The notes: a model not told the origin generated them from the letters alone. A stretch of DNA of 40,724 bases from Candidatus Sulfobium sp. (GCA_037380845.1 JARRRI010000047.1:1-40724); one strand, 5' to 3'; shown: positions 4,790 through 40,724, counted from the stretch's first letter. Numbers and translations: made by a program.

Positions 4790-5668
4790 ATGTTTAAGGG
4801 TTCCATAGTTGCAATAGTGACGCCGTTCAGGAAAGGGCGGGTGGACGAGAAGGCGCTCGGAGACCTTATCGACTGGCACATAAAAGAGGGGACCAGCGCC
4901 ATCGTGCCCTGCGGCACGACCGGAGAGTCCGCTACTCTTGATTATAAAGAGCATCACAGGGTAATCGAATTTACGGTCAAGGCGGTCAGTAAAAGAGTGC
5001 CGGTCATTGCCGGAACGGGTGCCAACTCTACGGATGAAACGATAATGATCACAAAAGGGGCGAAGAAGGCGAAGGTCGACGGCGTCCTGCTGGTGGCCCC
5101 TTACTATAACAAGCCCACCCAGGAAGGGCTTTACAGACACTACAAGACCGTTGCCGAGGCTGTAGACGTGCCGATTGTACTTTACAACGTTCCGGGCAGA
5201 ACGGCCGTGAACATCCTCCCCGCCACGGTCGCAAGACTTGCCGAAATCAAGAATATTGTGGCGATAAAAGAGGCGACTGCCGATATGAAACAGGTCAGCG
5301 AGGTAATCAGGCTCTGCGGGGACAGGATTACCGTCCTCTCGGGAGACGATTTCACCACTTTTCCCCTTCTCGCGCTGGGAGGGAAGGGCGTCATCTCGGT
5401 GTCGGCAAACGTCATGCCCGGGGCCGTCTCCGGGATGTGTGCCTTGTGGGAAAAAGGCGACCTTGAAGGGGCCAGGGCGCTGCACTATCAACTTGAACCC
5501 CTTAATGCGGCCATGTTCCTGGAGACAAACCCCATCCCGGTCAAGACGGCCCTGGCCATGATGGGCAAGATACAGGAAGAGTTCAGACTTCCGCTCTGTG
5601 AAATGGCGGCCGCCAATAAGGATAAGCTCAGGAAGGTCCTCGCCGGACTGAAGCTGATTAAAGGTTAA
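4790..5668 (+). CDS. dapA: 4-hydroxy-tetrahydrodipicolinate synthase
   Basis: GTTGES, PYYNKP, YNVPGRT, IKEA, SGDD, NPIPVK; AGGAGG RBS. Confidence 0.96.
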   Translation: MFKGSIVAIVTPFRKGRVDEKALGDLIDWHIKEGTSAIVPCGTTGESATLDYKEHHRVIEFTVKAVSKRVPVIAGTGANSTDETIMITKGAKKAKVDGVLLVAPYYNKPTQEGLYRHYKTVAEAVDVPIVLYNVPGRTAVNILPATVARLAEIKNIVAIKEATADMKQVSEVIRLCGDRITVLSGDDFTTFPLLALGGKGVISVSANVMPGAVSGMCALWEKGDLEGARALHYQLEPLNAAMFLETNPIPVKTALAMMGKIQEEFRLPLCEMAAANKDKLRKVLAGLKLIKG

Positions 5669-18561: not shown

Positions 18562-19328
18562 TCAGGAGTGCCTTTGGACCATCGCGTTATTCAACAACCC
18601 GGCACTGAATCCCTGCGGTACCTCGCCGCTGCGCGCATACATGTAAAGTGCGGCCTGAAATATCGCCTGCAGTGCGGACTGGACCAGTGCAAGGCCGATG
18701 AGATAAACCGCCGCCAGGCAAATCACAAAGACCGTCGCCGCCCCGCTGCCGGTCGCAATCCCCAATACTATAAAGAGGAATGCCGGAATCCCAAGGAGAA
18801 AGAAGACCAGGCCGAAGCTGAAATTGCCGATCAGCTGCTCGCCCCAGGTCTTCTTCAGAAGGGCCGTGGATTCTTTTAACGCCGTCAGGGGTTCCTTTTT
18901 TTCGATGATCAAAAAGGGGACCACCAGAAAGCTTGCCACCGTCCAGGCCACTCCGAACAGGGCGGCAACGAATTGTCCCAGCCTTTGCGAGCGGTCTTCG
19001 ATCACGCGAAGGACCAGTCCCACTGTCGGCCTCCTTCCATGCGCATCACGGCACAGGCAACGATCGCCGAGTTGAAAAACACTATCACGAAATAATTGCA
19101 GAAATAAAACAGAAAGAGCGTGGCGTAATACACGACGTGCGAACCGGTGGAAGCATGCTCACCCGGGGGCCGCCAGCTGCCGCTGACGATTAAAGGTACG
19201 GCAAACGATGCCAGCACGACCAGGCAGCAGATACCCGAGATGAGCGGAAAAATCAATATCTCCCTGTCCTTCCGGAGCACCTGCCACGAAGCGCCCATCA
19301 GAGACCAAGTGCCGGAAAATTTACCCAT
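18562..19328 (-). pseudogene. membrane protein (DUF6159-like) broken by a frameshifting internal deletion near 19025
   Basis: Two overlapping ORFs (19328-19002 and 19023-18562) read as N- and C-halves of one polytopic protein; the frame changes between MRMEGG and TVGLVLRVIEDRS. Confidence 0.75.
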
Positions 19329-19825: not shown

Positions 19826-20036
19826 GTCAGACGCCTGAAAAATCTCCGCTTGTCAGTCGCGAATTAAAGGGCCGGGAAACCCGGCTTACGTCGCGCCGGC
19901 TGCACGCATCAACACATGCATTAAGTATGCATTATTGATATGAAGCTATCAAGAGGGCGTTATTATTTGGGGGCCCTGGTAAGACGGGGCTCTTGACGCC
20001 TGTATGTGCTGCGGTTATCCCGATTCCGGCAATACC

Positions 20037-29784: not shown

Positions 29785-30327
29785 ATGACTAAGGAGCAAA
29801 GGCCTGCCGGTTTTTTCAAATATGTTCCCTGCCATTCTGATGGCAGTATGGCTTCAATCAGGGTTTATATCATATCGGTTATTCTGGTATTCCTGGCTCT
29901 GGCTGCGGCTGCTGCAGCGGCAAATGCGGCCGGGACGCGGGAGATCGAGCTTGTGGACGGCAGTGTCATCATCGGGGAGGTCGTGTCTTTGTCCGGCGGG
30001 ATCTACACGGTCAGATCGGCCACGCTCGGGACGCTCCGGATCAAAGAATCCGATATCCAGGTCATCCGTATGAAGAATTCCACCGTCCGGGATGACGTCC
30101 GGGAGCAGGAGAGGGCCCTTCAGAACAGTATGCCTGATGGCGCCGAGATCCAGGCCTTCATGAACGCCCTTCAGAACGATCCAGACTTGCAGAAGTTGGT
30201 CCAGGACCCGGAAATCATGAAGGCGGTGCAGGCAGGAGATATCGGTGCCCTTATGAGCAGTCCGGAGTTCACGAAGCTCCTGGAGAAGTATCGTTCTCAG
30301 GATATCAATAAGAATCCCTCCCGATAG
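29785..30327 (+). CDS. exported hypothetical protein with a C-terminal STI1-like (DP) helical region; start at 29785 or 29848
   Basis: Hydrophobic signal stretch ending AAAAANA; IELVDGSVIIGEV beta domain; LQNDPDLQKLVQDPEIM. Confidence 0.75.
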   Translation: MTKEQRPAGFFKYVPCHSDGSMASIRVYIISVILVFLALAAAAAAANAAGTREIELVDGSVIIGEVVSLSGGIYTVRSATLGTLRIKESDIQVIRMKNSTVRDDVREQERALQNSMPDGAEIQAFMNALQNDPDLQKLVQDPEIMKAVQAGDIGALMSSPEFTKLLEKYRSQDINKNPSR

Positions 30328-32306: not shown

Positions 32307-33257
32307 ATGGACCTCACTTACGCAGCCATGATCCTTTTTTACTGGATCTTCCTGTCCTGCATCTTTTTTATAGCCGGCTCGTATGCATCGAGAGTACTTG
32401 TCACCGATCCTTCAGGCGCGGATGTGTGTTATCTGCCGGGGAAACGGCAGTGCCTCGGCGAGACCTCGGCCCACACGATTTTTCTTGTTTCCATCCTCGC
32501 CCTGATCGCAGACGCCCTTTATCTCATACTCCAGGCATCTGTAATATCGGACACTCCGCTCAAAGGGGTTTATTCGGTAATTATCCCTTTTCTCCTGGAA
32601 ACGAGGTACGGAAAGTTCTCCGTAATCAGGACATGTCTTCTTGCTGCAGTGCTTGTTATGTCGTACAGTGCGGCAAAGAGGGCAGGCAGGCGGATTTCAT
32701 TCGCAGGCGCGGCTCTTTCCTTTCTGATCCTCCTGAGCCTGAGTATGTCCGGCCACCAGGGGACCAGGAGGGGAAGCCCTGTCCCGCTTTTCATCGATGT
32801 ATTTCATATCGGCGCAGTCTCCCTGTGGATCGGTGGACTCTTCTACATCCGTTTCTGTTATACCTTTTTTATGAGGCAGGCAGGCGTCGAGTTTTTTGCC
32901 ATTTTCAGGAACCTCATGGCGAGGTTCTCGCGTATGGCTACGGCCTGCGTCTTTATAGGGGCGTCAGCCGGGGTGGGTCTGGGCTTCATCAATGTCAAGC
33001 GATTATCCTATCTCATTAATGCCCCTTACGGCCGGGTCCTCCTGCTGAAAGCGCTGATTGTCGGCGTTCTTATTTCCCTCGGCGGGATCAATAAATTTAT
33101 CCTTCTTCCGCGCCTCGACAGGTCCGGTGCGGAACAGTGGACGGAAACGGCAACTTACCGGTCATGGCTGCGCAGGGTCATCACCGCCGAGGTCGTTACA
33201 GCCATGGTTGTGCTGCTCCTTACGAGTATCCTCACCCATCTTTCCCCTGAAGGCTGA
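32307..33257 (+). CDS. copD: copper resistance membrane protein CopD
   Basis: Directly follows copC; multiple TM segments, SGH, H...VSLWIGGL, RFS, YGRVLLLK. Confidence 0.88.
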   Translation: MDLTYAAMILFYWIFLSCIFFIAGSYASRVLVTDPSGADVCYLPGKRQCLGETSAHTIFLVSILALIADALYLILQASVISDTPLKGVYSVIIPFLLETRYGKFSVIRTCLLAAVLVMSYSAAKRAGRRISFAGAALSFLILLSLSMSGHQGTRRGSPVPLFIDVFHIGAVSLWIGGLFYIRFCYTFFMRQAGVEFFAIFRNLMARFSRMATACVFIGASAGVGLGFINVKRLSYLINAPYGRVLLLKALIVGVLISLGGINKFILLPRLDRSGAEQWTETATYRSWLRRVITAEVVTAMVVLLLTSILTHLSPEG

Positions 33258-33329
33258 CGTTTGCCTCCTCTAATTTCCCTGGCTGGCTGAGATCGCCTTG
33301 AGAATATGGGATGTGTCCCGGGTAGCAAA

Positions 33330-33374
33330 TTCACAATTCTTCATGAAGCCTTCATTGCAGGTTCATATTATATT
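33330..33374 (+). promoter_or_regulatory. four tandem TTCA(T/C) boxes plus a -10 element
   Basis: TTCAC 33330, TTCAT 33340, 33351 and 33362 (periods 10, 11, 11), then TATATT 33369-33374. Confidence 0.55.
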
Positions 33375-33430
33375 GTTACCCTTTGATCAAGAAGACAAGG
33401 ATACGTCTGGCAAGGCGGAGGAGGAGAAAA

Positions 33431-33796
33431 ATGAAGACGTTGTTTTCGACAGTATTGATTGGAGCTCTGGCCCTCGGTGTCCTGCTGGTGTTCAGCCCGG
33501 GCAGGGCGGATGCCTGGGATAGAGGGCCGGTCGTCGGTTTTTCGCTGGTGGTACCGCCTTTCGGCGTTTCGATAGGTGCACCCGCTCCCTACTACTATGC
33601 TGCTCCTGTTTACGTGGAGCCGCCCTATCCGGTCTATAGGCGCGCCTACTATTCGCCGTATTATGGCTATGGGCCGTATTTCCGGTACCGTCATCGGGAC
33701 CACAGAGGCTGGAGGGGTGACTGGGGCCACAGAGGCTGGAGAGGCGATTGGGGCCACAGAGGCTATGGAAGAAGGCACGGGCACTGGAGGCGTTAA
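33431..33796 (+). CDS. small exported Pro/Tyr/Arg/His-rich low-complexity protein
   Basis: GGAGGAGGAG RBS; signal peptide ending ADA; PAPYYYAAPVY; repeated HRGWRGDWG (27-nt unit). Confidence 0.75.
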   Translation: MKTLFSTVLIGALALGVLLVFSPGRADAWDRGPVVGFSLVVPPFGVSIGAPAPYYYAAPVYVEPPYPVYRRAYYSPYYGYGPYFRYRHRDHRGWRGDWGHRGWRGDWGHRGYGRRHGHWRR

Positions 33797-34208
33797 TAAA
33801 GCGGAAAAAGGCCTGCCTCCGGAAATTATACGAATGTCGGATGAGAAACGACTTTGACTGGGCGGTCTGAGGTGCCGCCCTGCCTATCTGCCGATGGAAG
33901 ATTTAGAGAGGTCTGTCCGCCTCGACGGCGAGGCCATGATATTTATGCGGGCTGTGGAGGTTAACCGGCCAGACCATGAATTATTATTTTTCCGCCCTCG
34001 GGTTCCTCCTGAAATAAAAAAAGTGGTGTTTGCTCCCTCATTATCAGGATTTCTGGATAAGAATTTGGTTCAGACTTTTTCAAGGTCTTAACTTACTCAT
34101 CTTGTCCGACATCCTGAACCTGAGAAGAGCAAAACCACCACTTGCCTGGTCGCGTTGCCTTTAATTCATTTATAGCTCTGTTGCGGACGGTTGTCAAGAA
34201 GTATTTTT

Positions 34209-34463
34209 TCAGCCATACTTTATCTTCAAAAGCAAAACCAGAAGCGTCAAGGTCAAGCCTACAGCATTGGTAATAATTATTGGCGTGGATTCTATTGCAA
34301 AGCCGTAGATAGTCCACAGCAGCAGACCGATGCCAAGGACGATGTACATGCCTATAGAGATATCTCGCGTTGATTTTGATTTCCATGCTTTGATGACCTG
34401 GGGCAAAAAGGAAATGGTAGTGAAAACCCCTGCCGCTAATCCTATGATTGTTGCGGTGTCCAT
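34209..34463 (-). CDS. SemiSWEET (PQ-loop) transporter
   Basis: 84 aa, three TM helices, SFLPQVIKAWKSKSTRDIS, LW..YG, IITN. Confidence 0.92.
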   Translation of the reverse strand: MDTATIIGLAAGVFTTISFLPQVIKAWKSKSTRDISIGMYIVLGIGLLLWTIYGFAIESTPIIITNAVGLTLTLLVLLLKIKYG

Positions 34464-34741
34464 ATCTGTTTAATGATACCGCCATTCACAACATCGGGTG
34501 CAAGATCCCACTTCATCATGAGATTATACAGGATTAAGGCAGGGATAGACAGCCCCGGGGACGAAACGGGTCTCAGGCACTGTTTGGAAATGGACCGCCT
34601 GACGGAGGAGGTCAAAGAGGTTCGGCCTGAAGGGAAAACCGGATTCGGGCCGCCCTGATATTGCATTGTTAAAGGATCCGAAAGAAAATATAAACAACGC
34701 TGTTCGTGACGAAGGCTTAATTTATCTCAAGGAGGCGGAGT

Positions 34742-34978
34742 ATGCCCGGAAGATGTGAATGCGGTGAAGTCACTGACTGGATGGAGGTGGGAAGCACCTG
34801 GATTTGCCGGAAATGCAGTGAAAAGGAAATAAGAAAGAGCATGAATGACCTGAGAACAGCCTTTCGGAAAATGTCGGCGGCGGAGCGTTCACTTTCATCG
34901 CTTTTTGTGGATACACTGACTCTCCCCGCGTTGCTTGACAACGTTGAGAAGGAAATCAAAAAGATTAAGGCAGCATAG
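34742..34978 (+). CDS. small Zn-finger plus coiled-coil hypothetical protein
   Basis: AAGGAGG RBS; CECG...WICRKC followed by an amphipathic helical region. Confidence 0.6.
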   Translation: MPGRCECGEVTDWMEVGSTWICRKCSEKEIRKSMNDLRTAFRKMSAAERSLSSLFVDTLTLPALLDNVEKEIKKIKAA

Positions 34979-35006
34979 ACGGGAAGAAGGAAAGGTAAGC
35001 GCAACA

Positions 35007-35066
35007 TTCCCAGTTGCGGGCCTCAGCGAATTTGGCAAGTCGTTGGCGGATGCTTTCAATGTTCAT
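35007..35066 (-). pseudogene. MazG-like pyrophosphohydrolase fragment A (codons 1-20)
   Basis: Translates MNIESIRQRLAKFAEARNWE; homologous to 39775-39889 and 39948-40004. Confidence 0.8.
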
Positions 35067-35234
35067 GGGATTTTCTTGCAGTATGCCCTGTTTTCAGTCG
35101 CCATAAAGAGGGGCAAAATAAGTCAACTAATTCATCATCGTCTCCTCAACTCCCATGTTGCTTAAATTGGCAACGCCCCCTACGCGTCGGCATTAAATCT
35201 CCATAAAATTCAGTATGTTATGATAGAATAGATT

Positions 35235-35390
35235 ATGCGGAAAAAATCGTTGCTCGAAACCAATCCTTACCTGAAGGTGCCTGGGAAATATCGCAAAGCG
35301 CTCATTGCCAACGTCGCCAGCTCAACAGCCATCGAGACCGGGGCATCAATCCCTTCCCGGAATGGATGGATAAGCACCAGCTCCGTATGA
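35235..35390 (+). pseudogene. Fic antitoxin copy 1, C-terminus replaced by the deletion junction at 35350/35351
   Basis: MRKKSLLETNPYLKVPGKYRKALIANVASSTAIETGASI matches the protein at 40145-40336 up to the junction. Confidence 0.8.
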
Positions 35391-35800
35391 GTTTCAGCGA
35401 GTGCGCGAATGACCTCGTGTCGATCCTTGAAATTGCAAGGTGTGTTGGGAGTAAGAACATCATTTTCGAACTGTGTCATAAGCGAAGGAATATGCAGAGA
35501 CGCCGCAAAAGGAAAATCACCCTTGCTCACGTTTACCTGTCGGTATTTTCCTGCCCATTCGTATATTCCTTCCAGCCAGATTTTGTGAAATTCGCAGATA
35601 TCCGCTGCAGTGAAACGATGGTCCGCGCCAAACTTCCGCACCAGCTTGTCTGTTGCCTCTTGCAATGCAATAGCTTCCGCATCCTCCATTGCTTCAGGCG
35701 ACCTGATGCCGAGCTTGTTCTTGAGCACTTTGCCGTTTGAACCCGGCTCGAATTGGTCTTCCACAAAGTTGGAAGTACTATAGCGGTCTTTCTTTCTCAT
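35351..35800 (-). pseudogene. Fic-family protein copy 1, truncated inside the catalytic motif (HPFREG|)
   Basis: VLKNKLGI, YEWAGKYR.VN.SKG, HPFREG, then runs into the antisense of the antitoxin. Comparison with 40308-40724 shows a 242-bp deletion. Confidence 0.88.
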
Positions 35801-35902
35801 ATCGCCTTAATGCAAGATTCAAGACGCGAGCCCATCCCCCTCCTTTTCAAGTTTATCTATATCAAATAGCGTTTTCTATCTCTTTTTTGCAGATGGATAT
35901 CT

Positions 35903-36010
35903 CTCACGCGACTGTTTGTCAATGTGCCACTGGAAGATTTCGAGGAGTTCGGCCGCCTCGGCTGCGAGGGGCATGAAGAGGTTTTTGCGACTGTGGAACT
36001 GGTCCCGGTT
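35903..36010 (-). pseudogene. MazG-like fragment B (codons 18-53)
   Basis: Translates NRDQFHSRKNLFMPLAAEAAELLEIFQWHIDKQSRE, matching the WDQFHSPKNL...EAAELLEIFQW pattern of dCTP pyrophosphatase-like MazG proteins. Confidence 0.85.
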
Positions 36011-36014
36011 TCAA

Positions 36015-36224
36015 TCAGTTTGCCACTGCGTATTCGACCGTTCGGGGGTTTTCCATTCGCTTGGAGGCGTCCAGTATTTCCATGCCCACGACGTTTCCGT
36101 CTTTATCGAAGTCAAGGATCACGCCTGGCTTCTCCTCGTCGCTCTCCTCAATCGGCGCGCTGCTGAAAACAATGCGCATAACATCGACATCGGCGTCATA
36201 GGTGATTTTCATGGTTGCCTCCAA
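36015..36224 (-). CDS. DUF2283 family protein (putative antitoxin)
   Basis: MKITYDADVD.M.I, ESDE..PGVILDFDKDGNVVG.EILDAS. Confidence 0.88.
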   Translation of the reverse strand: MEATMKITYDADVDVMRIVFSSAPIEESDEEKPGVILDFDKDGNVVGMEILDASKRMENPRTVEYAVAN

Positions 36225-36424
36225 TACTTGCTGATCTTGCTTGTTCTAAAAACTGTGACCACCCTGGGAGGATCATGCGTATCGTTTACGATAACCCTGA
36301 CAAGATAAGCCTTTCCCGTTCCTATATCCATTATGGACTGAAATGCCTTCTTGTTTCCATATTCATCAGCAATCTGCTGAGGATTTTGCAGGATGGTTTC
36401 GACGACATTCAAGGGAATCCTTCT
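36209..36424 (-). pseudogene. DUF4258 family protein (putative toxin), probably 5'-truncated
   Basis: RRIPLNVVETILQNP...YLVRVIVN...VVTVFRTSKISKY. The usual N-terminal H-A-x-x-x-M segment is absent, and the frame closes at the NERD stop 14 codons upstream of the TTG. Confidence 0.7.
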
Positions 36425-36451
36425 TGGCCTTCCTTGACCTTTCTTCGCACT

Positions 36452-37378
36452 TCAGCTGTCGTAACCCACTATGGCATGGCACTTGGGATAATTAGTGCAG
36501 CCCCAAAAAGGCTTATTGGCGTGAGCACCCTTTTTTGCGACGCGCACAACCATCGGCGCACCACACTGAGGGCAGGTCTTCTCTTTTGAGGAGGTTCCGG
36601 GAGACCGGCCCCCCGACTGTGAAGATGGAAGAGGGACCGGAGTTGAGTGTTTAATCCCAAAGCGCTTTCGATAGTCGATCTTAGCCGGTGTGTGCAGTGC
36701 GGCGATCTTTTCCGCCACGCCGAACATGGTATCCGTCGTCACGGTTTTGCCCACCGATGCCAGGGCGGAGAGATACGAAACGCGCTCCGCATTATCCATT
36801 ATAGTAGTTTCGAGGGTATCCGCCTTGATTACCATGCTTGTGTCGAACTTTTTCCGGGCCGGCCTGATTACTCTTGATTTTGGAGACACAAGGACGTAGT
36901 TCCTGAACGTCGGAGAGATGCGGAGGCCAAGTCGCGTCGGCATAATTCTTCTATCAACCAGTATCTTCCTCAGCAGATATATATGGCGATTATTCTGTTC
37001 GATGGGGGACTCGATCGAATAATACCTGTTCTTGTAGTCGACCAGGAATTCCCCGACCTCGGTGATCTTTACCGCATATGAATAATTCTTGGTCTCCAGA
37101 ACATAGAAATCGAAAAACCTGTCAATCATGAGATGATCGATCTGGGCGACCCTTCCGTCAAATTCCAGCCTTAAATCATGGATAACGGCCCAGTTCCTGG
37201 ACGAACTGTAAATGAAGTCGATGTAGTAAGCCGAACCTTTTTCGCCTTTGTCACCGGACTTCATAAACTTCAGTTCACGCTCGATCAGGAATCTGTTCTT
37301 TTCGGAGAGGGGCGATGAAAGCAGTGAGGTGAGTTCTTTAATGTCTGCTTCTTTCGAGTCGCGTTTCTTGATTATCAC
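36452..37378 (-). CDS. NERD nuclease-related domain protein with a C-terminal topoisomerase-type Zn ribbon
   Basis: G..GE, HDLRL, QIDHL, LETKN, SPIEQN.RH; CPQCGAPMV.R...FWGCTNYPKC. Confidence 0.92.
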   Translation of the reverse strand: MIIKKRDSKEADIKELTSLLSSPLSEKNRFLIERELKFMKSGDKGEKGSAYYIDFIYSSSRNWAVIHDLRLEFDGRVAQIDHLMIDRFFDFYVLETKNYSYAVKITEVGEFLVDYKNRYYSIESPIEQNNRHIYLLRKILVDRRIMPTRLGLRISPTFRNYVLVSPKSRVIRPARKKFDTSMVIKADTLETTIMDNAERVSYLSALASVGKTVTTDTMFGVAEKIAALHTPAKIDYRKRFGIKHSTPVPLPSSQSGGRSPGTSSKEKTCPQCGAPMVVRVAKKGAHANKPFWGCTNYPKCHAIVGYDS

Positions 37379-37433
37379 TTATCTTCGGTCTCCTCTTTCA
37401 GTTGAGTAACGTTTTTTCCCACAGCAGTTCTCG

Positions 37434-37667
37434 TCATCTCTTATTATATTTCGTGGCGTTGTTCTTCGACAATTCTACGGGATATTTCTTCTCGTTTACT
37501 TCGATCTTTTCCATGATCGCCTTTTCGATGTCTACGCCGAGCTTGTCGGACAGGCGGACGAGGTAGATCATCACATCGGCGATCTCCCGCCTGATAAGCG
37601 CCATCTCCTTTTTGTCATTGACGATCTCCCGTGACTGCTCGTCGGTGAGCCACTGGAAGATTTCGAG
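37434..37667 (-). pseudogene. MazG-like fragment C (codon 40 to stop)
   Basis: Open frame LEIFQWLTDEQSREIVNDKKEMALIRREIADVMIYLVRLSDKLGVDIEKAIMEKIEVNEKKYPVELSKNNATKYNKR*, with the EIAD metal motif and no N-terminus. Confidence 0.9.
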
Positions 37668-37712
37668 GGTTATCGAATAAAGGACCGATCTCCCGGTCCG
37701 GAAGGCCTCTTC

Positions 37713-38396
37713 CTATGCCCGTCGGCGGCGGAGGACATAGAGCGCCGCCCCGGCCAGACAGAGCACCATTACGGCGATGCCGACTGTGTCGAGAGCGGGC
37801 ACTGCGACGGCTCCGGCAGCGACGAGATCGCCAGTGACGTTGATGAAGAGGTTCCCCGGCGCAGACGGTGTAATATCGGTGGCCGGCGGGTAGGGCGCCG
37901 GGGAAAACGATTCCGCTTCCGAGCCGAGTTCCGTGACTCCGACCCCCGGGGTGCCCGAAGGGCTGCCTGATCCTTCCGGCGACATGGACAAGGGCGACGA
38001 GTTTGTGGAGGCCAGCACCACGTAATAATGCCCCGGCGGGAGCGTGAGCCCCGAGAAGAGCGTGCGCAGCGCAAACGTGTCGGTGAGGCCCGAAACCGAA
38101 ACCGGAGGCGCCACTTCGTTGGCAGAGGTGGTGCCGGGTCCGATCTGATTCACCAGGTAGACTGTGCCTTCAACTCCCCCGATCGGGCCTTCCACGCTTT
38201 GGTCGACCAACGGCATGGTTATGCTTACATTCGAGTACGTTACCGTCTGGCTCCAGCCCTCGACCATCACGATCTGGTTATAGAAGCCGAAGGGCTGCGG
38301 CCCCGTGATGGTAAGAACATTCGCGGCATGGCCGACCCCGACTGTGACAAGCAGAGCAAAAGCGGATATCAGAACAGAAACATATCTTTTCATCAT
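37713..38396 (-). CDS. surface protein with an IPTL-CTERM-like (exosortase) sorting signal
   Basis: Signal peptide, Ser/Thr/Pro/Gly-rich beta domain, C-terminal VPALD + TM helix + RRRR. Confidence 0.82.
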   Translation of the reverse strand: MMKRYVSVLISAFALLVTVGVGHAANVLTITGPQPFGFYNQIVMVEGWSQTVTYSNVSITMPLVDQSVEGPIGGVEGTVYLVNQIGPGTTSANEVAPPVSVSGLTDTFALRTLFSGLTLPPGHYYVVLASTNSSPLSMSPEGSGSPSGTPGVGVTELGSEAESFSPAPYPPATDITPSAPGNLFINVTGDLVAAGAVAVPALDTVGIAVMVLCLAGAALYVLRRRRA

Positions 38397-38471
38397 GGCC
38401 CATGGCCTCCCTGATTATTTTTCAATAAGCTAACAGAGCGCCTGCAAGAAGTCAAGGCTGCGGAAGGCCCC

Positions 38472-38613
38472 ACATTCAACCCTTTCGATAATCTCGACGA
38501 TAAAATACCTCCTCGATGCCGAAGGTATCCGCTATTTTTTCCAGGGTGAGCAGTTCAGCTATATGCAGCCGTTTGTTGGCCCGGAGAGGCTGATGATAGC
38601 AAAGGAGGATGTC
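38472..38613 (+). pseudogene. DUF2007-like (putative signal transducing protein) fragment
   Basis: TFNP, a frameshift, then IKYLLDAEGIRYFFQGEQFSYMQPFVGPERLMIAKEDV; abuts MazG fragment D through the shared GATGTC. Confidence 0.6.
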
Positions 38614-38681
38614 TTCAATATTCATGGGATGTCCTCAAACAGTACTCTGTCACAGTTCAAGGGCGGACCCCTCGTCCTCTT
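38608..38681 (-). repeat. conserved leader plus MazG-like fragment D (MNIEDI)
   Basis: AAGAGGACGAGGGGTCCGCCCTTGAACTGTGACA...CCC ATG AAT ATT GAA GAC ATC. Confidence 0.8.
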
Positions 38682-39049
38682 GTTTTATCTTAGTCTCACA
38701 TGTGTTTGGACGAGTTCACATCGCCCCAACTTACATTCCAGCCAAAAAAGTCGACCGGAAGGATATTCAGGACACAAGGAAGGTGAAGATCAATGCTGCT
38801 TAGAGGGACATTTTTGTAGTCAAAAAGAGGTGTTTAAGTCCAAAACAAGCCCTTTTCCCCTTATGTTCTTACGTAATTTCAGATAGTTATCTTGGTCCGA
38901 CCCCGGGGAATTTTCGCCATATCAAGGGCTGCCCCCCGGCCGTTCCGTTCTTTCAAAAGTTCTTAATTGCAGTCCCTTCCGGCAGCTGCTATTTTATTTA
39001 CAGAAAGTGGTCTCGATCATATCAACCGGTTCAGGTATATAGGGAGGAA

Positions 39050-39565
39050 ATGATGAAGAAGGCATTGATAACAATGGCAATGTGTTTTCTATGTGCGTCA
39101 ATATTGTGCGTATCCGCCCCTGCTCAGGCAGACATCCTCGTCAACAACGCCGGTCTCGACCTGCTGATCAAGAGCGAGGCGCAGACGGCGGTCAGCATGC
39201 TCCAGGCGATTTATGATAAACATCTGAAGGGGGAGATGACCCTCGAACAGGCGAAGAAGCTTGGCGCCGATCTTCTGCGGGAGATGAAGTACGGGACCGA
39301 GGGATATTTCTTTGCCGATACTACCGAAGGAGTCAGTGTGGTGATGTACGGGAGGAAGGATATAGAGGGAAAGAGCATACTGCAAAACAGGGACACAAAC
39401 GGTACGTACTACATAAAGGAGATGCTGGCGAAGGCGAAGGCCGGTGGCGGGTATGCGGAATACTTCTATATGAAGAAGGGACAGACCACGACCCACCTCA
39501 AGAGATCGTATGTTCTCCCGTTCAAGCCGTTCGGGTGGATCGTCGGCACCGGATACTACCGCTGA
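39050..39565 (+). CDS. exported stand-alone single Cache domain protein
   Basis: Signal peptide; G.MTLEQAK, LR.M.YG..GYFF, D.NG.YYI, GGGY..Y, KRSY...FKPFGWIVGTG.Y. Confidence 0.9.
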   Translation: MMKKALITMAMCFLCASILCVSAPAQADILVNNAGLDLLIKSEAQTAVSMLQAIYDKHLKGEMTLEQAKKLGADLLREMKYGTEGYFFADTTEGVSVVMYGRKDIEGKSILQNRDTNGTYYIKEMLAKAKAGGGYAEYFYMKKGQTTTHLKRSYVLPFKPFGWIVGTGYYR

Positions 39566-39579
39566 AGGGGAGGGCCTGA

Positions 39580-39679
39580 CGGCCGGGATCGAGGCGGATC
39601 GAGCTCGTCGATCGCAGTGTCATCACCGGAGAGGTGGTGTTTTTGTTGGGAGGCGTCTACACGGTCAGGTCGGTCACGC
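39580..39679 (+). pseudogene. decayed paralogous fragment of the exported-protein gene at 29785-30327
   Basis: GATCGAGCTCGTCGATCGCAGTGTCATCACCGGAGAGGTGGTG...TCTACACGGTCAGGTCGGTCACGC aligns with 29927-30025. Confidence 0.8.
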
Positions 39680-39774
39680 GCCCGGGAAATGAATAAGCCA
39701 ACCCCGTAGATTCCTTCCTTAAAATTCCAGCGAAGCAGTTCGGTCCCTGTCAGCCCGGCCATGCCGGGGAGCGG

Positions 39775-39942
39775 TACGGCCGCCCTCGGCGGCGAGGGCT
39801 ATGGAGAGGTTTTTGGGACTGTAGAACCGGGTCCAGTTGCGGGCCTCCGCGAATTTGGTCAGCCGTTGGCGGATTTCTTCAATGTTCATTGTATGTCTTT
39901 AAGTAACTGTCACATGTCAAGGGCGGACGCCTCGGCCTTTCT
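39775..39942 (-). pseudogene. conserved leader plus MazG-like fragment E (codons 1 to about 38; ATG at 39889)
   Basis: AAAGGCCGAGGCGTCCGCCCTTGACATGTGACA...; MNIEEIRQRLTKFAEARNWTRFYSPKNLSIALAAE, then a 1-nt insertion. Confidence 0.85.
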
Positions 39943-39947
39943 TTGAA

Positions 39948-40060
39948 CAGTTACGGGCCTCTTCGAATTTAGCAAGTCTTTTGCGGATTTTCTTCAATAT
40001 TCATGGGATATTCCCAGGGAAATGTCATATGTCAATGGCGGACCCCTCGGCCTCTTTTAT
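39948..40060 (-). pseudogene. conserved leader plus MazG-like fragment F (codons 1-19; ATG at 40004)
   Basis: AAGAGGCCGAGGGGTCCGCCATTGACATATGACA...; MNIEE, +1 frameshift, IRKRLAKFEEARN. Confidence 0.82.
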
Positions 40061-40144
40061 TTAATGCCCTCTTGCCTTAAAGTAGCCTGCCCCTTTTTCG
40101 TTCCCTATGCCTCCGGGGCATCGCGTTAAATGGTATAATATAAT

Positions 40145-40336
40145 ATGTCAAAAAAGTCATTACTCGAAACCAATCCTTACCTGAAGGTGCCCGGGAAATA
40201 TCGCAAAGCGCTCATTGCCAACGTCGCCAGCTCAACAGCCATCGAGACCGGGGCATCAATTGAATCCATAGCACACAAACTGGCAAAGACTGATAAGGTA
40301 CACAATCTCAAATCTCCTCAGCGCTCTTCCCGATAA
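40145..40336 (+). CDS. putative Fic antitoxin, convergent with fic
   Basis: 63 aa containing SSTAIETG, a variant of the (S/T)xxxE(G/N) Fic-inhibitory motif; extended -10 TGgTATAAT 5 nt before the ATG. Confidence 0.75.
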   Translation: MSKKSLLETNPYLKVPGKYRKALIANVASSTAIETGASIESIAHKLAKTDKVHNLKSPQRSSR

Positions 40337-40724
40337 TCAGCGAAAACAGTCTCTCCATAGGCTGGTAGTCTTGGTCCATTCCTGCCTGAATTGCTTCGAA
40401 ATAGTCTTTTTTCTTATCCCCGCTTATCAATTGGAAATCGAGTAAAGGCAACCCGGCCTGAAGTGCCATTAGAGTTGAGAGAATTCTCGCTACCCTGCCG
40501 TTCCCTTCCCTAAACGGATGGATAAGCACTAGCTCCGTATGAGTTTCAGCGAGTGCGCGAATGACCTCGTGTCGATCCTTGAAATTGCAAGGTGTGTTGG
40601 GAGTAAGAACATCATTTTCGAACTGTGTCATAAGCGAAGGAATATGTAGAGACGCCGCAAAAGGGAAATTACCCTTACTAATGTTTACCTGTCGGTATTT
40701 TCCTGCCCATTCGTATATTCCTTC
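40308..40724 (-). CDS. Fic-family protein copy 2 (5' end outside the window)
   Basis: Intact HPFREGNGRVAR motif; near-identical to 35351-35572. Confidence 0.92.
   Translation of the reverse strand, partial: EGIYEWAGKYRQVNISKGNFPFAASLHIPSLMTQFENDVLTPNTPCNFKDRHEVIRALAETHTELVLIHPFREGNGRVARILSTLMALQAGLPLLDFQLISGDKKKDYFEAIQAGMDQDYQPMERLFSLIIGKSAEEI

Follow-up and report, generated by a model that had tools for sequence, protein, structure and literature searches.

Diverged pieces of a MazG-like gene in a hypervariable accessory island of a Candidatus Sulfobium genome

Results

A MazG-like gene in pieces at a contig end

The stretch of DNA examined here, referred to as the window, is 40,724 nucleotides (nt) long and is the complete contig C47 (JARRRI010000047.1) of a Candidatus Sulfobium assembly (GCA_037380845.1; 104 contigs, 3.18 Mb; G000 below), a metagenome-assembled genome (MAG) that the named records of its closest homologues place in the Thermodesulfovibrionales (Nitrospirota). 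Positions 1 to ~33300 are occupied by ordinary core genes (aconitase, lysine biosynthesis, phosphoribosyl pyrophosphate synthetase, ribosomal protein L25, pyruvate kinase, pyruvate:ferredoxin oxidoreductase and CopCD), and beyond ~33350, as far as the contig end, the G+C content is lower and the gene content is accessory. At least the final 7.4 kb of the contig belong to a hypervariable accessory island arranged around successive diverged copies of a gene for a MazG-like NTP pyrophosphohydrolase of 116 amino acids (aa), with blocks of 0.1–4 kb lying between gene pieces that are all on the same strand.

A first-pass annotation had described six interlocking minus-strand pieces of this gene, F to A in reading order, and all six are found where they had been placed; a seventh (G) and an eighth (B-prime) are added here. 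In the list, nt 1 is the A of the ATG and the full gene has 348 nt.

40004..39948, minus strand: piece F, codons 1–19, with a one-base insertion (an extra A) that shifts the frame; break after AACTG, at nt 56
39889..39777, minus strand: piece E, codons 1–38; break after GGCGGCCG, at nt 113; TBLASTN E 4e-11
38625..38607, minus strand: piece D, the first 19 nt of the gene, preceded by ~60 nt of common upstream DNA
38476..38625, minus strand: open reading frame (ORF) in which piece D is fused in frame with 43 unrelated codons
37667..37434, minus strand: piece C, codon 40 (from ~nt 118) to the stop; TBLASTN E 4.9e-37
36010..35902, minus strand: piece B, codons 18–53, nt 52–160; TBLASTN E 1.8e-12
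35066..35008, minus strand: piece A, codons 1–19/20; break after TGGGA, at nt 59; TBLASTN E 3.8e-4
33866..33956, minus strand: piece G, degenerate, about codons 19–50, in repeat families D5/D9
between 36419 and 36433, in public contigs only: piece B-prime, corresponding to 35987..35856 and accompanied by 101 further nt

Piece C matches the Pfam MazG-like family PF12643 (E 3.7e-14, 53.2 bits vs a cut-off of 27); the other pieces are too short for this profile and were aligned to the intact 116-aa homologues of genomes G008, G040 and G028. A TBLASTN search with an intact homologue recovered A, B, C and E together with G, the last as a weak match (33897–33956, E 24); F and D, being too short or frameshifted, were missed. 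Neither Pfam nor NCBIfam gave a family match for the tail joined to D. No match to the MazG copies is present elsewhere in the genome outside C47. The copies are 66–88% alike (A and F 66%), and each of their junctions lies inside a single public contig (see below), which bears out the first-pass view that they have diverged and are not an assembly repeat. B-prime, situated between the NERD and DUF4258 genes, differs from B by 17 changes and 7 gaps; it shares the break of B and 20 nt of flank, and was therefore copied rather than freshly cut.

Several of the pieces have complementary ends. E stops at nt 113 and C begins at ~nt 118, and F stops at nt 56 and B begins at nt 52–56, so that E/C and F/B fit to within ~5 nt, as the first-pass annotation had proposed. 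A stops at nt 59 and G (or its counterpart in the related genome G001) begins at nt 46–60. The start of E lies within 63 nt of the F break, and E brings its own upstream region and start; no replacement start is found beside the 3′ piece at A|G or E|C.

Two structural readings fit this arrangement. A nested reading, the 'Russian doll' of the first-pass annotation with G added, is one of them: F and B would be split by a block containing E and C (themselves enclosing D), the NERD gene and a toxin-antitoxin pair, followed by a Fic gene and then by A, split from G by a 78-aa ORF and a SemiSWEET gene. A tandem reading fits equally well, in which orphan 5′ pieces F, E and D would stand ahead of C, as in G023 of another genus, together with a split copy A/G and the copied B and B-prime; G and B-prime also spoil the original scheme of six pieces. 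Both readings require repeated entry into the same gene, in one orientation and at preferred positions, frequently with a spare gene start, a pattern of the kind that site-specific accretion at a 5′-end attachment site yields.

Break positions and palindromes

The breaks recur at two spots. Those at spot 1 are at nt 56–59, within the palindrome AACTGG-GA-CCAGTT (nt 52–65) and in or next to its loop, and those at spot 2 are at nt 106–118, in or just 3′ of GCCGCC-GA-GGCGGC (nt 97–110/112). In the copies examined from the f1 lineage, the family in which broken copies are concentrated (see below), no other perfect palindrome with a short loop has a stem of 6 bp or longer. The orientation is uniform, with all pieces on the same strand here (7/7), in G023:C48 (4/4) and in G001:C118 (3/3), for which the chance under random orientation is ~2^-11 by our own arithmetic.

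The 5′ pieces of G023 end at nt 56, 59, 114 and 114, compared to 56 for F, 59 for A and 113 for E, a coincidence whose chance we estimate as ~4e-5 under uniform breakage. AACTG is the final sequence of F and of one G023 piece, and TGGGA that of A and of another G023 piece. Common junction DNA in the two genomes was considered and rejected: the 60 nt behind matching breaks have no significant similarity by local alignment (four pairs, p 0.12–0.9), and the short words CCGCTCCC and TGCGCT that are common to the junctions are within chance. Because the DNA behind them is unalike, the matching breaks look like separate events. A comparison with the IS200/IS605 insertion sequences and palindrome-associated transposable elements (PATE) revealed no common end structures behind the breaks. 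An inverted repeat across the junction, considered as a sign of snap-back or template switching, is significant at only one of 13 junctions (A, p 0.02), and this candidate was set aside.

Small GC-rich hairpins that differ from one another in sequence occur in MazG pieces at or near the break spots (G023:C48 3176–3198, G001:C4 ~5440–5540, and ~33868–33890, in piece G, and 39744–39776 of the window). The 22-nt hairpin of G023 was considered as a dispersed mini-element and rejected, as it occurs once in G023 and not at all in G000 or G001.

Related genomes

The gene is present in 134 of the 317 genomes of the order that were searched, and partial pieces are concentrated in one family, occurring in 11 of the 19 f1 genomes with a match vs ~5 of 115 outside it. 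The locus is different in all three genomes of the same genus (G001–G003), a comparison that the first-pass annotation had called for. G001 has a copy with no ATG that is cut at codon 77, a piece of codons 10–46 and a piece of codons 16–48, all on one strand; the last of these directly adjoins the SemiSWEET gene and is for that reason taken as the counterpart of G. Neither G002 nor G003 has a MazG piece at the locus. Their SemiSWEET genes are flanked by 5′ Fic fragments with the upstream region, on one side in G002 (at a contig end) and on both sides in G003, such that Fic is a second gene with an 'orphan gene start' pattern in these relatives. The fragments comprise the upstream region and ~25 codons (G003:C246 7472–7574 and 8070–8189; G002:C67 9846–9938).

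In G023, contig C48 carries four same-strand 5′ MazG pieces, each with its upstream region, and the blocks between them contain a toxin-antitoxin pair and an AAA/DUF4143 gene. The piece ending in AACTG is followed by the next start within 38 nt and then by two more 5′ pieces. At the front of some of the incoming blocks, here and in the window, stand a promoter region and gene start of their own, or an entire copy of the gene. Other genomes break near spot 2: G286 at nt 106, G182 (of another family) at ~nt 117, and G012 at ~nt 108–111 as estimated from a protein alignment. G288 retains MazG codons 1–48 and 82–116 with a toxin-antitoxin remnant between them, and codon 82 may be a further break spot common to G288 and G023. 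We note that in both genomes MazG pieces starting at codon 82 are associated with the same small antitoxin-like gene (G288:C4 3473–4159; G023:C32 1567–2495), and that this gene is paired with a PIN toxin in G023, only a toxin remnant being present in G288.

Proposed integration at preferred sites

We tentatively favor an account in which a recombinase that is absent from the window integrated DNA at preferred sites, with subsequent decay and local duplication. The two palindromes would be attachment sites for one or more site-specific recombinases, acting in trans or encoded beyond the contig end, where an integrase may lie, the island being cut by that end. Small integrative blocks would accrete successively, one after another and one inside another, and several would bring a replacement 5′ end, as do the islands that target dusA. 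Later decay would account for deletions and loss of the recombinase gene, and later duplication of pieces with their flanks for B/B-prime and for the Fic gene before both A and F. The first-pass proposal of an accretion site that re-supplies the gene start is upheld in part, as to the recurring breaks, the unrelated DNA behind them and the incoming starts (F followed by E, and in G023), and falls short as to a recombinase, conserved ends and an empty-site joint.

Site-preferring integration is favored by the uniform orientation, the matching break positions in two genera, the palindromes at those positions, the complementary ends, the replacement starts, the variability of the locus within the genus, the concentration of partial pieces in f1 and the dusA precedent. 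A number of observations weigh against it. First, no integrase or other recombinase is encoded among the 46 ORFs of the window (40.7 kb, Pfam scan), as the first-pass annotation had also reported, and none was found in the 65 ORFs around the G001 and G023 arrays (10–12 kb) and six other broken copies. Secondly, no conserved element-end sequence lies behind the breaks; those at site 1 are 3 nt apart (56 vs 59) with partner starts at nt 46–60, which is looser than a single precise crossover, and further breaks occur at nt 19, 67, 129, 138–160, 189, 231 and 241–244. Thirdly, the intact copy of G008 and the G288 fragment carry the first palindrome and are unbroken there, so the palindrome alone is insufficient to break the gene; the broken copies of G284 and G286, which belong to the same genus, have the appearance of plain deletions that reach different distances toward one and the same OmpA gene. 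Fourthly, 79 short proteins (30–62 aa) from a big database end anywhere in codons 32–58, a result that is negative for site 2 as a general, family-wide hotspot; many of them derive from contig ends or frameshifts, and the survey is blind to pieces of codons 1–19 and hence uninformative for site 1. Finally, two or three sites in one gene of 348 nt would need several enzymes or one tolerant enzyme, and genomic islands are typically far larger than these blocks. No empty-site or circle joint is present in the aligned contigs of four metagenome runs, although contigs drop rare variants and this is uninformative either way.

The strongest competitor, which we regard as rather doubtful, dispenses with a dedicated enzyme. 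The palindromes would stall replication or be nicked, and the ends would be joined illegitimately or by microhomology with available DNA, often from relatives with the same gene and anchored by homology on one side; recombination between direct repeats would then duplicate or delete blocks. Such a process agrees with breaks that are at or next to the sole perfect palindromes yet not at one exact base, and with the lack of conserved element ends and of a recombinase. It would also suit the loss of target DNA with insertion in G288, the hairpins within pieces (22 nt and unique to the genome in G023, ~60 nt in G001:C4, and one in G), and the common break and flank of B and B-prime, which point to copying. 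However, random capture should not leave pieces on one strand only, and a coincidence of positions to 0–1 nt, in two genera and at three places, is tighter than expected from breakage provoked by structure. The near absence of junction inverted repeats (1/13) is a further difficulty, and stems of 6 bp are far shorter than the palindromes known to be cleaved or to stall forks.

It is improbable, in our judgment, that there is no site preference at all, and that a few broken pieces of ancient date were either inherited or moved together between genera while the remainder reflects pseudogene decay in a junk-rich island. Decay is certainly in evidence in the frameshift of F, in the degenerate state of G and in the G001 copy, which has no ATG and is cut at codon 77, and the cargo includes gene fragments such as the N-terminal Cache part and the tail that follows D. 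Many breaks fall outside the two spots, no hotspot holds for the gene family at large, and kin are not independent samples. Nonetheless, the DNA behind the matching G000 and G023 breaks is unrelated, the pieces are ~75–78% alike (by eye) and mostly open, they stand in a different order in each of the two genomes, and the complementary pairs E/C, F/B and A/G point to insertion.

Upstream motifs and REP-associated transposases

Pieces D, E and F have ~60 nt of upstream DNA in common, including a 24-nt motif that resembles a repetitive extragenic palindrome (REP), and a second motif lies further upstream of F.

40023..40046, minus strand: REP-like motif before F
39908..39931, minus strand: REP-like motif before E, beginning ~14 nt past the F break
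38648..38671, minus strand: REP-like motif before D, with a weaker copy at 38913–38936
40078..40096, minus strand: second upstream motif, of the AAAGGGGCAGGCTACTTTA type, which is found before MazG starts in relatives

The copies before D, E and F have 4–5 mismatches to a family consensus, GGGGTCNGCCCTTGACAT, which with up to 3 mismatches has 55 matches in 41 genomes, many of them identical copies, vs 26 for a reversed control. In G021:C29 the motif forms a perfect 24-nt inverted pair around a gene that scores 81.8 bits against NF047646 (REP-associated tyrosine transposase, RAYT; cut-off 80), matches PF01797 and has a DnaA-type helix-turn-helix tail. Because it brackets RAYT genes in relatives, the motif before D, E and F is a REP of that system. 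A REP family with the 24-nt core GGGGTCAGCCCTTGACATTGGACA brackets RAYT genes with a DnaA-type helix-turn-helix tail in G021:C29 (5543–6576), G001:C119, G023:C10 and G010:C140, and it occurs in several genera of the same Nitrospirota family, often near contig ends.

Within the 3.18 Mb of G000 the 24-nt motif has three good copies and one weak copy, all in the island, rather than many dispersed ones, and none beside the genome's own RAYT-like gene on C22. A TTGACA box lies within it, spaced from the ATG as in a promoter, and the role of the motif in G000 may be no more than that of the gene's promoter region. Folding was better than that of shuffled sequences in one of six combinations of strand and copy (the E copy with the F end, plus strand, DNA fold z −2.3). 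The motif is absent upstream of the intact homologues outside the lineage (G008, G040 and G028).

A RAYT (Y1/HUH) or an IS200/IS605-like single-strand process could in principle move the blocks, with the REP as element end and the hairpins of the gene as target, and this we consider quite unlikely. It would make sense of the perfect inverted pair in G021:C29, of the motif beside RAYT-type genes in G001:C119 and G023:C10, of its position ~14 nt past the F break, and of a RAYT-like gene (66 bits, below the cut-off) in G288, 84 nt downstream from its broken MazG; G000 itself has two Y1 genes. Against this, the motif occurs at only three or four places in G000, all in the island and none next to the RAYT-like gene of C22, and no motif is present at the A, B, C or G junctions. 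Its promoter-like TTGACA box offers a simpler role, and only one of the three copies folds better than shuffles. The confinement of the motif to the island, in three or four copies, and its absence from half of the junctions also separate the island from REP and REPIN (paired REP) systems, which it otherwise resembles in that the D/E/F motif family flanks RAYT genes as inverted pairs in relatives. RAYTs are not known as carriers of cargo, nor are REP or REPIN known to move it.

The second motif (AAAGGGRCAGGCTACTTTA, 19 nt) has three copies in the genome, at 40078–40096 of the window, C67:15234–15252 and C13:5413–5431, and similar stretches lie 20–45 nt before MazG starts in G001, G023, G182 and G288; it could be a promoter or a terminator element.

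Comparison with integrons

A search beyond the window, as the first-pass annotation had advised, located an integron integrase and the two Y1 genes elsewhere in the genome; the related arrays yielded no recombinase. Candidate enzymes in the genome also include tyrosine recombinases on C1, C6, C55 and C90. The integrase, IntI, is encoded at C35:19856–20809 (TIGR02249, 406.7 bits vs a cut-off of 265) with its own array adjoining, and none is present at the island. Positions 19856–34000 of C35 form a true integron with IntI and at least five classical attC cassettes, and a 154-aa Y1_Tnp (IS200-like) gene at C35:26012–26338 lies within or just past its array. We looked for attC by a regular expression and by counting paired R″ ...AAC and R′ GTT... 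boxes 50–140 nt apart, a crude test. The island has one such pair per strand, inside the Fic gene, vs a mean of 5.9 in 200 shuffles, and the genome's real integron array has 8 per strand over an equal length; no attC was matched by the regular expression anywhere in C47, in agreement with the first-pass annotation. An integron cassette array, or a cluster of attC sites lacking an integrase (CALIN), was therefore rejected, the island having fewer attC-like pairs than shuffles and IntI and attC being on another contig.

The island does resemble integron arrays and CALINs in its small, promoter-less-looking blocks, its toxin-antitoxin and unknown genes and its one-strand repeats, and in a genome that owns IntI. 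It differs in having no attC-like sites, a mixed gene orientation, no attI or IntI at the locus, and repeats that are pieces of a coding gene. An off-site array, in which the genome's integrase put cassettes at secondary GTT sites in the gene, is very unlikely. The true IntI with its classical attC cassettes, the AAC/GTT at site 1 on both strands and the integron-like cargo of small genes and toxin-antitoxin pairs would suit it, but the attC-like pairs are depleted, the cargo genes lie on both strands, and the breaks in A, in G023 piece 1 and in the G001 piece are not at G/TT.

Contig and assembly

The stretch was present in 14 public metagenome runs (marsh), with half or more of the sampled words in 10 of them, and the contigs of four were aligned. 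Every MazG junction is internal to one public (Logan) contig, neighboring contigs overlap by ~30 nt in window order, the depth in run X1 is even over core and island at ~42–49, and the layout is identical in three runs from at least two studies. Since the junctions lie inside single public contigs, the locus is not an assembly chimera. The window itself probably contains two local assembly errors. The first is the missing B-prime block: the joint 35987/36433 is present in three of the four aligned runs (depth 49.3 in X1, 5.5 in X9 and 2.9 in X10). The second is a 242-bp 'deletion' in Fic_A at 35350, which is bridged by two contigs and accompanied by doubled depth over 40224–40481, for which reason it is probably an assembly collapse, with Fic_A intact in the population. 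Joints at 35282/40193 (X9), 40501/35350 (X1) and 40530/35379 (X9) were considered as excision events and rejected, as they lie in the Fic repeat and are read as the intact Fic_A. The contig terminates inside this duplicated Fic repeat, the rest of which is in no other of the 104 contigs.

That the island is an artefact, with strain variants of one locus chained into a contig, is hardly credible, since despite a MAG contig that ends in a repeat and has two likely local errors (the 242-bp collapse and the missing B-prime block), the junctions are in single Logan contigs with ~30-nt overlaps, the depth is even in X1, the layout recurs in three runs, the pieces are too diverged (66–88%) to share assembler k-mers, and arrays of the same kind are found on single contigs in G001 and G023.

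Other genes of the island

The blocks between and around the MazG pieces contain the following genes.

34209..34463, minus strand: SemiSWEET / PQ-loop transporter (Pfam PF04193; NCBIfam NF037968, 101 bits vs a cut-off of 80)
34742..34978, plus strand: 78-aa ORF, convergent on piece A, with no match in Pfam, NCBIfam or PADLOC
35235..35390, plus strand: small ORF opposite Fic_A, a copy of 40145–40336 (repeat D2, 92%), its 3′ part lost in the window
35267..35800, minus strand: Fic_A, Fic/Doc-domain gene (Pfam PF02661; PADLOC PDC-S04, E 3.8e-51), without 242 bp in the window
36015..36412, minus strand: DUF4258 / DUF2283 gene pair, toxin-antitoxin-like (PF10049, E 8.6e-21; PF14076 weak, E 0.0027, below cut-off)
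36452..37378, minus strand: NERD nuclease-related protein with a C-terminal topoisomerase-type zinc ribbon (Pfam PF08378, PF01396)
37713..38396, minus strand: secreted protein whose sorting tail is IPTL-CTERM-like (TIGR04174, 20.5 bits, equal to the cut-off)
39050..39565, plus strand: Cache N-terminal part of a sensor protein, without output domains (Pfam sCache_2, E 2.1e-32)
40145..40336, plus strand: 63-aa ORF opposite Fic_F, no family match; possible antitoxin
40308..40724, minus strand: Fic_F, Fic/Doc-domain gene, cut by the contig end (Pfam PF02661; PADLOC PDC-S04, E 3.2e-55)

Most of the labels given to the cargo in the first-pass annotation stand, those of sCache_2, NERD, DUF2283 and Fic by Pfam matches and that of IPTL-CTERM exactly at its cut-off; DUF4258 is weak, and no Pfam or NCBIfam hit was obtained for the segment called DUF2007. 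The SemiSWEET gene is conserved in G001–G003 (83–86%), and a NERD gene also adjoins the broken MazG of G288. The Cache fragment spans only positions 57–180 of a sensor kinase model of 457 positions. A block of Fic with the small opposite-strand ORF precedes both A and F, and the two blocks are 92–96% identical, far closer than A and F themselves (66%); the loss of the 3′ part of the small ORF at 35235..35390 is probably due to the assembly collapse. An ancestral Fic–MazG unit was considered and rejected: among 80 metagenome loci with Fic relatives (41–77% identity) none has a MazG match, and Fic is on this basis regarded as cargo. An Rfam scan of 33000–40724 with E up to 1 gave no matches.

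Three other observations concern the window. At 38360, near the start of the IPTL-CTERM gene, the public contigs of three runs have six additional bases (AAAAAC). The 100 nt just past the Cache fragment (39580–39679) are 81% identical to a stretch in the core part, at 29927–30025. In the core part as well, two adjoining, overlapping minus-strand ORFs at 18562–19328 match the two halves of DUF6159 (profile positions 1–36 and 65–201), and represent a split gene, a frameshifted gene or an assembly error.

Discussion

Two kinds of known islands are close to what we observe. Passages of Farrugia et al. (2015; PMC4482086) describe dusA-associated integrase islands in which the 5′ end of the gene is targeted and replaced by the island; these are alike in that the inserted DNA lies between a 5′ remnant and a newly supplied 5′ end, as at F/E and in G023, and differ, as portrayed there, in having their own tyrosine integrase beside the target, lengths of tens of kilobases and a single site. 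With landing at a 5′ end and its replacement already in print for dusA, in those same passages, the undescribed cassette-capture mechanism that the first-pass annotation had raised is not shown. The MazG island has no integrase that we could find, blocks of 0.1–4 kb, at least two sites, and some insertions without replacement. SXT/R391 in prfC is a second case of targeting of a 5′ end.

Accretion as such is exemplified by the ssrA islands of Dehalococcoides (PMC3146451), which are described as stacked islands separated by ends of the target gene. They are alike in the stacking of elements at one site, the single orientation of the target-end copies and the many elements without a recombinase, and different in their near-identical att copies and in the use of the 3′ end of an RNA gene. 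In the MazG island the pieces are 12–34% diverged, come from different parts of a protein-coding gene and are partly nested. Cis-mobilizable elements are a further example of site-specific accretion and of tandem islands. Keyword searches of the literature returned no paper in which a MazG-like gene serves as the target of insertion, which is not proof of absence.

A bolder version of site-preferring integration, which we put forward as a speculation with the chances well against it, is that this small gene of housekeeping type is an embedded docking platform in one Thermodesulfovibrionales family, its two palindromes being reused by an unrecognised recombination system that stacks and nests small defence and accessory cassettes. 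Such a system may read hairpins and may be linked to the neighboring REP/RAYT elements. If this were so, the platform would survive because many cassettes bring a promoter and a gene start to spare, and the whole would be a functional equivalent of an integron without IntI or attC.

If the preference for sites should prove false, the locus would serve as a warning that decay and duplication can mimic tidy nesting, and that MAG contigs mis-state such loci in detail. If it is true, a protein-coding 5′ end with two internal sites would join the short list of attachment targets, and the question raised is which enzyme reads the two palindromes. It would also indicate how small defence and toxin-antitoxin genes gather in a poorly studied phylum without the usual machinery of integrons or large islands.

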